A stretch of DNA of 64,000 nucleotides from the NCBI GenBank assembly GCA_963733375.1, contig CAVTDB010000006.1, positions 38,095-102,094 on the forward strand, in the 5' to 3' direction. The translations under genes and the position numbers were made by a program. The notes beneath the pieces were generated by a model that saw only the letters and a program-made list of their open reading frames with translations, did no database searches and was not told where the DNA came from. The stretch is from Nitrospirota bacterium (GTDB lineage Bacteria; Nitrospirota; JACRHJ01). This document shows positions 29,308 to 37,894 of the stretch, piece after piece (within the stretch, counting starts at the first letter, position 1; every line of letters starts with the position of its first letter).

Positions 29308-30876
<1,569 letters not shown>

Positions 30877-31369: not shown

Positions 31370-34385
<3,016 letters not shown>

Positions 34386-34481
34386 TAATTTTAGCCTTTG
34401 AGCAGTCTAGGCCCAAAAGCTCGGCAAGTGCAAGAAACTCGTGACGCATATTAAGCATTCAAAAACGCAAGTTTTAAAGTT

Positions 34482-34598
34482 TCCGGTGGTTATTCCGGAG
34501 AGGCCACACCCGTTCCCATTTCGAACACGGAAGTTAAGCTCTCCAGGGCCCATGATACTGCCTTCGTAAGGAGGTGGGAAAGTAGGTCGCCGCCGGGA
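34482..34598 (+). rRNA. rrf: 5S rRNA
   Basis: CCGGTGG...CCGCCGG helix; CACCCGTTCCCATTTCGAACACGGAAGTTAAG; AGTAGGTCG. Confidence 0.97.
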
Positions 34599-34605
34599 TT
34601 AATTC

Positions 34606-34640
34606 AAAAAGCCCCAGAGAAATCTGGGGCTTTTTTTATT
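34606..34640 (+). terminator. rrn terminator
   Basis: AAAAAGCCCCAGA-gaaa-TCTGGGGCTTTTTTT. Confidence 0.9.
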
Positions 34641-34694
34641 TCTGATTGTTTGAGCTATACTTAAAGGTAGAGTTACATCCAAGGAAGTAGAAGT

Positions 34695-35045
34695 ATGAAA
34701 AGCCTCACGTTTGTAATTGCGGCTCTGGCGTTGTTCGCCGGTCTTGATGTCCTTTCCCCAGTTGCGCCCGCTTATCCGTCGGATAAAAATATCACCCTCG
34801 TCTCGACCGACTTCGACACTAACATCTATATCCCGCCTGCCCAAACTCAGTCGAAATTTGTCCTTGGCGTCCACAAGCCGGACGGGACCTGCTATATTAC
34901 CGAGACCTACGCGAACTCGCTGGACGAGGCGATGACTTCGATAACAAACAGCTGCCAGGACTGTGCAGTTGACGACATCACAAACGCCTATATGCCCGGC
35001 GCGCCGGATTTTAAAAATTACTGTCTGGCCGGGCCGGGCACATGA
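34695..35045 (+). CDS. Small exported Cys-motif protein, paralog 1
   Basis: Signal peptide; GVHKPDGTC-x20-CQDC-AVD-DIT...C; homologous to the next ORFs. Confidence 0.8.
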   Translation: MKSLTFVIAALALFAGLDVLSPVAPAYPSDKNITLVSTDFDTNIYIPPAQTQSKFVLGVHKPDGTCYITETYANSLDEAMTSITNSCQDCAVDDITNAYMPGAPDFKNYCLAGPGT

Positions 35046-35058
35046 GGAGGAATCGGCC

Positions 35059-35370
35059 ATGAAAGTTTTTAAAATATTTTTGATGGCGGCGGTCATGGCG
35101 CTGTCGTCCATGCCGGCAATGGGGGACGAGCTTCTCCTGCCCGGCGGCAGCGGGATGGGTGTGACGCATCCGGAGATGTATTATATCGGCGTCCATCGTC
35201 CCGACGGGAGTTGCGAGACCGTCCGCGTGCTCGCGGATAACGTGGACCAGGCGATGCAGACGGCGAAGAAAGACTGCGACATCTGCGTAACCGACGACTT
35301 AACCGATACGTTCCGGAACATGACGCCCGCGAAGAGGCTTGAGGTCGCGCGGACGTGTCCGAGGTTTTAA
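35059..35370 (+). CDS. Small exported Cys-motif protein, paralog 2
   Basis: RBS GAGGAGG then MKVFKIFLMAAVMALSSMPAMG; GVHRPDGSC-x20-CDIC-VTD-DLT...C. Confidence 0.85.
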   Translation: MKVFKIFLMAAVMALSSMPAMGDELLLPGGSGMGVTHPEMYYIGVHRPDGSCETVRVLADNVDQAMQTAKKDCDICVTDDLTDTFRNMTPAKRLEVARTCPRF

Positions 35371-35470
35371 ACCGTTACCTTTTTGGTAAAAAAAGGTAAC
35401 GCCAAAAACTTTTAAACTGTCCGGCTTTCTTTTGTGTTACTTTTCTTTCACCCGAAAGAAAAGTAACGGT
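35371..35470. repeat. Bipartite GTTAC...GTAAC palindromic repeat (copy A)
   Basis: GTTACCTTTTT...AAAAAGGTAAC plus GTTACTTTTCTTTC...GAAAGAAAAGTAAC; copies at 54594, 55872 and 56781. Confidence 0.85.
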
Positions 35471-35484
35471 CTTAGGAGGCTGTT

Positions 35485-35841
35485 ATGAAAACCTACAAAG
35501 TATTAATTGCCGCAATCTTCGCCGTACTGGCGCTGGCGGCATACGCGATCGCGGACAAGGGTTCCGTAAAGATAACCGGCACCCCCAGTCCAACCAGTGC
35601 GCTTGATATGAAGGACGCGAGCGGAGTCCTGCACGAATACTACATCGGCCTGCACAGCCCCGGAGAAAAATGCCTCACGAAGGTAATAAAGGCGCAGTCG
35701 CTGTCCGAGGCCGTGCGCAAAGGGATCCAGTCTTGCAGGGAATGCACGGTCTATGACCTGACTGACAACTTCACCGGAAAGGGCAAAAACACCTTTGCAT
35801 GGCAGACCATGAAGTACTGCCCGATAAGCGAGACGCCATAA
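35485..35841 (+). CDS. Small exported Cys-motif protein, paralog 3
   Basis: RBS AGGAGG; MKTYKVLIAAIFAVLALAAYAIA; GLHSPGEKC-x20-CREC-TVY-DLT...C. Confidence 0.85.
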   Translation: MKTYKVLIAAIFAVLALAAYAIADKGSVKITGTPSPTSALDMKDASGVLHEYYIGLHSPGEKCLTKVIKAQSLSEAVRKGIQSCRECTVYDLTDNFTGKGKNTFAWQTMKYCPISETP

Positions 35842-35899
35842 CGAGGGATGGAAATGAAAGCGAGGCCCTTCTACTAATGACTGAAGGGATTATATTTGA

Positions 35900-36291
35900 T
35901 CTAGAGTCTAAGGCAGGTGGCGGGATTTGTCCCTGCTCGGTTGGCGGTTTTCGGCATTCTTGATGGTCCCGTACGGGTTCTCGTACCTGCGGGCGGTCAG
36001 CTATGAAAACCCGGCTTCGGGCAACCGTTCCGGGAGTCCGGACCTTCAGGGTTCCGGGATCCCGATGAGCGACTACAGCATCGGATTCCGCGATAGCTTC
36101 CGGCAAGACTCCCTGCAAGGTCAGAGGATGTACGGGCGCAAAACTCGGAGCAGGCGCTTGCATTAGCGCAAGCGGAATGCCCCACCTGCCAGGTGCGGGA
36201 CCTGACCGGCAAGCAGGTGACGGCGGAGCGCTCCGTGGAATACCACGATGCCGATGTCTTTGGCCTTCTGCCAGATGGACCTGCCTGCTAA
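35900..36291 (+). pseudogene. Frameshifted paralog 4 of the Cys-motif family (start uncertain)
   Basis: Removing single bases near 36098 and 36123 yields DYSIGFRDSSGKTPC-KVEDVRAQNSEQALALAQAE-CPTC-QVR-DLTG...C-stop at 36291. Confidence 0.75.
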
Positions 36292-36330
36292 CCGGCAAGG
36301 GTCAATAATGCTGTTATAACCTGAAATTCA

Positions 36331-36360
36331 AAAGCCTCGCTTTAAACGGGGCTTTTTTTA
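36331..36360 (+). terminator. Rho-independent terminator closing the paralog cluster
   Basis: AAAGCCTCG...CGGGGCTTTTTTT. Confidence 0.65.
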
Positions 36361-36401
36361 TTTCCATATTTTGTTTGACAAAAAAGGTGCGCCCGCTATA
36401 A

Positions 36402-37894
<1,493 letters not shown>

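Follow-up and report, generated by a model that had tools for sequence, protein, structure and literature searches.

An undescribed, narrowly distributed family of putatively exported four-cysteine proteins encoded beside the rRNA operon of a Nitrospirota bacterium

Introduction

The described proteins closest to those treated here are PaaB, the small subunit of phenylacetyl-CoA oxygenase, and several groups that carry CxxC motifs. PaaB is cytoplasmic, is not known to have a four-cysteine cluster, and serves as a bridging subunit of the oxygenase complex. HMA domains, represented by MerP and CopZ, have the order beta-alpha-beta-beta-alpha-beta with the motif GMxCxxC between beta1 and alpha1, and only two cysteines are needed; MerP is exported to the periplasm by the Sec pathway. 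In the thioredoxin fold the CxxC is located at the N-terminus of a helix, the Cys4 sites of zinc ribbons and rubredoxins are formed by two CxxC knuckles, and sulfur carriers tend to keep the active cysteine near the C-terminus. Here, these groups are compared with a tandem array of three small genes, A, B and C, and the apparent remnant of a fourth, D. The array was found in a stretch of 64,000 nucleotides from a Nitrospirota bacterium (GenBank assembly GCA_963733375.1, contig CAVTDB010000006.1, positions 38,095 to 102,094 of the forward strand), which is called the window below. A, B and C are located between the 5S rRNA terminator and tgt, all on the + strand.

The three genes belong to an undescribed protein family that is narrow in range; no such family turned up in the literature at the level of search listings and abstract openings. 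Comparison was based on 70 family domains and on two structural models. PaaB (4iit_B, 3egr_A) was the top structural neighbour of both models and is alike to the family domain in size and in the order of beta-hairpin, helix and strand. VIA-align gave a Z of 5.2 (root-mean-square deviation 3.1 over 57 residues and 2.5 over 55 residues for the two models), and Foldseek gave TM scores of 0.62 and 0.66 with a deviation of 2.5 over 60 columns and a probability of 0.85, but at an E-value of 0.94. This likeness is weak, with Z below the tool's noise level of 7-8 and a sequence identity of 10-15%, and it falls short of what the tool itself rates as a common arrangement. The PaaB family (PF06243) was matched by none of 42 family members at E <= 1, and no paa genes were located nearby.

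MerP and CopZ share with the family a small single alpha/beta domain with one CxxC, which would be a possible functional analogy if the family bound a metal. The predicted order in the family is beta-beta-alpha-beta-alpha-alpha, the CxxC precedes beta3, and two more cysteines are invariant. No Pfam match to HMA (PF00403) was obtained, and the HMA-containing entry 8r7a chain A reached a Z of 2.7-2.9. DsbA, DsbC and ResA/CcmG are exported proteins with a key CxxC, often CPxC, and in the family a proline follows the first CxxC cysteine in 27 of 70 domains. Unlike the CxxC of the thioredoxin fold, that of the family follows the helix, in a domain of about 65 residues and three strands in both models. 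Thioredoxin-like families were matched neither by A, B and C at E <= 10 (Pfam, NCBIfam) nor by the 42 members at E <= 1 (Pfam). Cytochromes of the c type are likewise exported with a CxxC, but CxxCH occurred in 0 of 70 family domains. Where zinc ribbons and rubredoxins have a second knuckle, the family has isolated cysteines 20 residues before and 22-45 residues after its single CxxC.

An earlier, sequence-only reading had described three exported-type paralogs directly after the rRNA (rrn) operon, with signal peptides, an exactly spaced core and a fourth cysteine near the C-terminus, and had held that they are not c-type cytochromes, do not look like thioredoxins and could not be assigned to a known family. 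The analysis bore this description out: the open reading frames (ORFs), their kinship and the core were recovered, the array lies 3' of the 5S rRNA gene and its hairpin, and Pfam, NCBIfam, PDB sequences, Foldseek and VIA-align gave no convincing match.

Sequence features of the paralogs

Paralog A (34695-35045) codes for 116 amino acids comprising a predicted signal peptide, a linker and the four-cysteine domain. Paralog B (35059-35370), the most conserved type, codes for 103 amino acids counted from its ATG. The longest ORF over B begins at a GTG further upstream (34963), and the sequence GAGGAGG at 35044-35050, which overlaps the stop codon of A, is located 8 nt upstream of the ATG. Paralog C (35485-35841) codes for 118 amino acids and is preceded by AGGAGG at 35474-35479. 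Pairwise BLASTP gave E-values of 9e-13 (A-B), 6e-9 (A-C) and 3e-11 (B-C) at identities of 31-36%, and by these alignments the paralogy of the three proteins is far beyond chance. The ratio of nonsynonymous to synonymous substitution rates (dN/dS) was calculated against orthologs of three genomes and was 0.21-0.32 for A, 0.09-0.22 for B and 0.15-0.39 for C, thus between 0.09 and 0.39 in nine of nine comparisons. A, B and C are real genes under purifying selection.

In the alignment, A, B and C share the spaced core [YF]x[IL]G[VL]HxPxxxC-x6-A-x-[SN]-xx-[EQ]A-x7-CxxC-x3-D[LI]T, followed by a fourth cysteine near the C-terminus. Conservation was counted by column over the 70 domains, in the numbering of C. 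The cysteines were present in 70 (C63), 69 (C84), 69 (C87) and 70 (C112) domains. Among the other positions, A76 was kept in 70, A70 in 69, G55 in 66, T93 in 64, Y/F52 in 68, Y/F111 in 60 and P113 in 42 domains, and the histidine of the motif in 24. D/N91, four positions after the CxxC, was invariant in all 70 as an acidic or amide residue (D in 58, N in 12). To judge from the alignment, G55, A70, A76, D/N91 and T93 look structural. The last cysteine is located 1-7 residues from the C-terminus, usually within [YF]-C-P.

The number of cysteines per domain varied in pairs. Exactly four core cysteines were found in 51 of 70 domains, and a further 18 carried the four and an extra pair, one cysteine in an N-terminal extension and one on the helix; both extra cysteines were present in 18 domains and a single one in none. 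One domain (P0027) lacked both CxxC cysteines and kept the first and the last. Every domain therefore has an even number of cysteines at the six cysteine columns. The few cysteines outside these columns, judged by eye in some rows only, apparently belong to signal peptides or over-extended N-termini. Cysteines that come and go two at a time are a classical sign of disulfide partners.

The N-termini of A, B and C were examined by reading the sequences and with a crude hydropathy script. Each begins with M-K and continues with a hydrophobic stretch and a cleavage-like site of small residues. A hydrophobic stretch after M-K/R was also present in 66 of 69 full-length members, and the three exceptions look N-terminally truncated. 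Neither a lipobox cysteine nor a twin-arginine motif was found in A, B or C; by a simple pattern search, RR occurred in 1 of 69 N-termini (MRRYVLPL), which does not indicate export by the twin-arginine (Tat) pathway. The family proteins are therefore probably exported by a Sec-type route.

Predicted fold and database searches

Full-length C was modelled with AlphaFold from 42 aligned sequences (mean pLDDT 76.3; core blocks 89-94), and the domain of B alone (68 residues) from 21 aligned sequences (pLDDT 88.6, pTM 0.75). Both models have the same order of elements, namely beta1, beta2, helix, CxxC loop, beta3, two short helices and the last cysteine. In the model of B the strands comprise residues 4-11, 17-24 and 42-45 and the helices residues 27-34, 47-51 and 55-61. 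The CxxC occupies residues 38-41 in the loop after the first helix, and residues 35-41 are without secondary structure. The 20-35 residues after the signal peptide were of low confidence, and the models suggest a protein made of a signal peptide, an unstructured linker of this length and a compact domain of about 65 residues. The first cysteine would open beta2, and the second CxxC cysteine would directly precede beta3. Since beta3 should run parallel to beta2, these two cysteines should be neighbours, which fits a disulfide as well as a metal site.

Scans of A, B and C against Pfam and NCBIfam at E <= 10 gave sub-threshold noise only. DUF5795 (PF19108) was rejected as a relative at 13.1 bits and E 0.1 for A, against a gathering cut-off of 27 bits; it was matched by 2 of 42 members with a best E of 6e-4. 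The N-terminus of PtrA was likewise rejected (9.6 bits, sub-threshold). In a Pfam scan of the 42 members at E <= 1, 21 families appeared, each in one or two members and none consistently. The family profile gave no match to PDB sequences at E <= 10. Foldseek searches gave best E-values of 0.82 (model of C) and 0.94 (model of B) against the PDB and of 0.075 against BFVD, where every match was uncharacterised. In the ESM Atlas no usable match was obtained for C, and the matches of B (0.80-0.81, to unnamed clusters) were within noise. VIA-align against 48,161 chains returned a single chain with Z >= 5, PaaB 4iit_B. PurS, ribosomal proteins, ACT-like domains and small phage inhibitors followed behind it at Z 3-4.5. 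As modelled, the domain shows a small and plain alpha/beta layout for which no relative could be demonstrated.

Family range and phylogeny

A profile of A, B and C was searched against 1.84 billion cluster representatives and matched 42 proteins at E <= 1e-3, 10 at E <= 1e-10 and 2 at E <= 1e-30. P0020 (824 aa), a low-complexity repeat protein, was dropped as a false match, which left 41 credible representatives. These are 94-184 aa long, and only P0007 exceeds one domain. No fusion to a known domain was found among the family members from these representatives. A word-index search of 5.8 billion clusters gave 19 proteins, all without a Pfam domain and all named 'hypothetical protein'. Homologs that keep the cysteine spacing exist, so that the outcome which would have overturned the sequence-only reading did not arise. 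Two metagenome proteins differ in layout: P0007 has two family domains in tandem with eight cysteines, and in P0040 a long repeat rich in Trp, Gly and Asn (WGNT-like units) separates the domain from the signal peptide.

Homologs were present in 9 of the 11 further genomes that belong to the window's GTDB family, representing six genera; the two genomes without a match were 87% and 75% complete. No match was obtained in 389 genomes from 43 other Nitrospirota families, in agreement with a smaller sample. As far as searched, the family does not extend past a single lineage of family rank, made up of dsrA-bearing Nitrospirota from peat, soil and sediment.

A maximum-likelihood tree was calculated from 64 of the 70 domains; the six omitted domains were missed by the core pattern. 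Four clades were supported, A with 100/97 (6 rows), B with 98/96 (9 rows), C with 95/90 (12 rows) and D with 93/87 (18 rows), and each holds one copy from the window together with members from other genomes. Separate supported clades that span genomes indicate that the paralogs predate the genera. On this tree, A, B, C and D are four ancient paralogs.

State of the cysteines and possible function

The proteins are tentatively regarded as cysteine-stapled periplasmic binding modules in which two disulfides are favoured over a metal-thiolate site, an assignment held with reserve. The four invariant cysteines would pair as two disulfides and act as covalent staples, fastening to the sheet both the C-terminal tail and the loop that precedes beta3. 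A small, rigid and protease-resistant scaffold would result, and its variable faces (the linker, the helix surface and the C-terminal segment) could give each paralog type its own ligand in the periplasm or envelope. We infer the disulfide chemistry, the binding role and the ligands; a binding role is suggested by general experience with small stapled domains.

Several observations weigh against this assignment. Canonical machinery for forming periplasmic disulfides was not seen in the lineage: no DsbB, VKOR or DSBA turned up in any of its 12 genomes, six of which have a completeness of 90% or more and a contamination of 5% or less, and the control genomes behaved as expected. Matches to Thioredoxin_4 were marginal and occurred in 3 of the 12. 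The genome of the window (G000) codes for a CcdA/DsbD-type reductant exporter and carries dsrA (585.8 bits), which together suggest an envelope that is reducing and exposed to sulfide. A haem-copper oxidase homolog is encoded as well, so the host meets oxygen at times. An excess of even cysteine numbers, a test whose logic is described in PMC2823432, was not seen in a crude count of 250 predicted exported proteins of this genome (88 even, 100 odd), and the ratio was equal among 1781 predicted cytoplasmic ones (703 even, 803 odd). The count was made with a crude script and a rough signal-peptide rule, for this genome alone and without a positive-control genome. Finally, no partner gene travels with the family: among 29 neighbour ORFs scanned from eight loci, none recurs save tgt, yajC and secD.

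The sequence-only reading had offered disulfide staples and metal binding as alternatives, and the evidence divides between them. The pairwise gain and loss of cysteines favours disulfides, and the absence of DsbA, DsbB and VKOR from the 12 genomes favours thiolates; the former was weighed slightly higher. The more specific proposal of a site of three cysteines and a histidine fell, with the histidine in 24 of 70 domains against 69-70 for the four cysteines. The label 'system' was also overstated, with no linked partner gene and with the rrn operon and tgt as constant neighbours.

A less likely alternative is that, on the same fold, the four cysteines bind a single metal ion (Zn, Fe, Cu, Ni or Cd) through their thiolates. 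Such a site could serve as a structural staple in place of disulfides where the periplasm is reducing, or it could buffer or chaperone metal. The missing Dsb and VKOR proteins, the CcdA-type reducing pathway together with dsrA, and the predicted exported proteome without even-cysteine bias all agree with this, as does the invariant acidic or amide residue after the CxxC. From the models, the CxxC loop and the first cysteine at beta2 would bring three of the four cysteines to one edge of the sheet. The extra cysteines that occur only as a unit and the member without CxxC cysteines fit disulfides better than an all-or-none site of four ligands. The domain also has a single CxxC knuckle, no Gly after the CxxC and a poorly kept histidine; no metal-binding Pfam family was matched over threshold, and no metal-resistance or transport genes were located nearby.

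A working redox or sulfur-carrying site at the CxxC, on a fold other than thioredoxin and with the first and last cysteines as a staple, is doubtful. The proteins would then be lineage-specific periplasmic shuttles for thiol-disulfide exchange or for persulfide and polysulfide, serving in place of the missing Dsb proteins or in sulfur metabolism. P0027, which keeps just the first and last cysteine, is what a C1-C4 staple beside a separate C2-C3 site predicts, and the dsrA-bearing lineage without DsbA, DsbB and VKOR and the invariant cysteine close to the C-terminus are in line with such a role. Support from P0027 is that of one sequence, though, and the CxxC does not begin a helix in the manner of known thiol oxidoreductases. 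The genes have no linked redox partner, and four diverged paralogs exceed the need for a housekeeping shuttle. That a lineage lacking DsbA, DsbB and VKOR evolved its own exported non-thioredoxin CxxC shuttles, for oxidative folding or for persulfide or polysulfide, with four types for different clients, is an improbable extension.

Still less probable is an array of immunity-like proteins or inhibitors of periplasmic enzymes, each directed against its own toxin or hydrolase. Small exported paralogs that stand in tandem and have diverged strongly would suit it, and the weak structural neighbours include the small phage-encoded inhibitors T7 Gp2 (Z 3.5-4.0), Dmd (Z 3.7-4.0) and AcrIF9 (Z 3.3-3.5), all below the noise level. 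Against it stand the fixed chromosomal place by rrn and tgt across six genera, without a mobile island, and the nine annotated neighbourhoods, in which no toxin, effector or secretion gene is adjacent. Moreover, each paralog type is under purifying selection and shows no rapid turnover. That A, B and C are chance open frames in the spacer after the rrn operon, as their shortness and the adjoining rRNA genes, where spurious ORFs abound, might suggest, is refuted by the significant paralogy, the 41 credible homolog clusters, the ribosome-binding sites, the confident predicted fold and dN/dS values well below 1.

Structure of the locus

The rrn operon of the window comprises the 16S rRNA gene (29309-30866), tRNA-Ile and tRNA-Ala, the 23S rRNA gene (31370-34386) and, as the last gene and upstream border of the array, the 5S rRNA gene (34482-34598, + strand; Rfam RF00001, 97.8 bits). 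ORFs of 50-122 aa on both strands of 32817-34458, inside the 23S rRNA gene, are mechanical and not genes. A terminator-like hairpin of 13 pairs with a T run (34606-34635, + strand) closes the operon. A sigma-70-type scan of 34636-34694 gave no passing promoter site for the array; a weak TTGAGC-17-TTACAT spotted by eye was rejected as unconvincing. Downstream, a second terminator-like hairpin (36330-36356, + strand) closes the array. It is followed by the promoter-like sequence TTGACA-16-TATAAT (36375-36402, + strand; 12 of 12 consensus matches), which is identical in the same-genus relative L024, and by tgt (36411-37535, + strand; PF01702, E 1.9e-171) and yajC (37532-37894, + strand; PF02699, E 1.9e-29). 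Because a perfect sigma-70-type consensus directly precedes it, tgt should have its own transcription start. Its sequence signals mark the locus as a transcription unit with a terminator at either end, which carries A, B, C and the decayed D.

Copy D (about 35912-36291, + strand) had been missed in the sequence-only reading, so that the array extends to about 36291 and not to 35841. The family profile matched 36127-36213, and a wider profile matched 36127-36228 with an E of 5.9e-7. The frame 36097-36291 retains ...SEQALALAQAECPTCQVRDLTG...C and reads ...NSEQALALAQAECPTCQVRDLTGK...C before a stop codon. CPTCQVRDLT is kept in this frame, and the matching N-terminal parts are located in two other frames. 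An intact fourth gene is present at the same place in two genomes of the same genus (G001 and G002; open frames of 163 and 168 aa), and one of these, in L024, is a 152-aa ORF from its ATG. In a DNA alignment with an intact copy, the ribosome-binding site and start of D are replaced and several indels of 1-4 bases are located inside the gene; the flanking terminator and tgt promoter are without indels. D is taken here for a pseudogene that is decaying in this strain, although a local assembly fault could also account for its state.

The spacer between B and C (35373-35482, + strand) contains two strong predicted RNA hairpins, at 35373-35401 and 35422-35482. Its minimum free energy was -44.6 kcal/mol (z -6.9), a value equalled by 0 of 200 shuffles. 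In the second hairpin, the outer stem pairs with the Shine-Dalgarno sequence of C. Among the three same-genus sequences the inner hairpin was kept, with compensatory pairs; it was not clearly present in the other genus. The hairpins could be a processing or stability element, or could control translation of C.

Small shares of the window were found in 20 public runs, mostly from peat, soil and wetland, four of which are RNA libraries. These come from three or four studies, and X18 and X19 appear to be duplicate filings of a single data set. At 90-97% likeness, RNA-library contigs covered A at 34777-34895, the stretch from the end of B through the spacer into the start of C at 35365-35643, C again at 35597-35854 and D at 35951-36185. 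The contig over D lacks many of the extra bases that break the copy in the window, which agrees with D being intact in relatives. All these contigs are from relatives, and stretches without cover, including the coding region of B, carry no information. The contigs are a weak hint that the array is transcribed in relatives.

Genomic neighbourhood

Loci were searched with a six-row alignment of B-type proteins. A-B-C was located 3' of the 5S rRNA gene in four of four loci found with this profile, from two genera. The D type lies directly upstream of tgt in G005, G007, G008, G010 and the window's genus. The joined order rrn-A-B-C-D-tgt was found only in the window's genus; in sister genus g5, A-B(-C) after rrn (L054/L055) and a D type before tgt (L056) are located on different contigs. 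Neighbours that did not recur include purA, gcvT, a KdpD/KdpE pair, transketolase, Ku, hemerythrin and a giant NHL/laminin-G protein. The last is a protein of 1581 aa encoded just upstream of the D-type gene in one relative (L053 2983-7725, minus strand; G008). Its domains are NHL repeats, laminin-G, a bacterial Ig domain and beta-helix domains, and it was not seen at the other loci.

Implications

The array adds a well-delimited new protein family, a new DUF in Pfam terms, with a confident predicted fold and a sharp taxonomic range. If the cysteines are ordinary staples and the proteins minor envelope components, it would be a routine new family of small proteins. The puzzle lies in cysteines that are even in number and are gained and lost in pairs, in a lineage in which DsbA, DsbB and VKOR were not found. 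Either disulfides would be formed in the envelope by an unfamiliar route, or metal-thiolate staples would be used where other organisms use disulfides. Both outcomes would bear on how envelope proteins are stabilised in anaerobic, sulfide-exposed bacteria.

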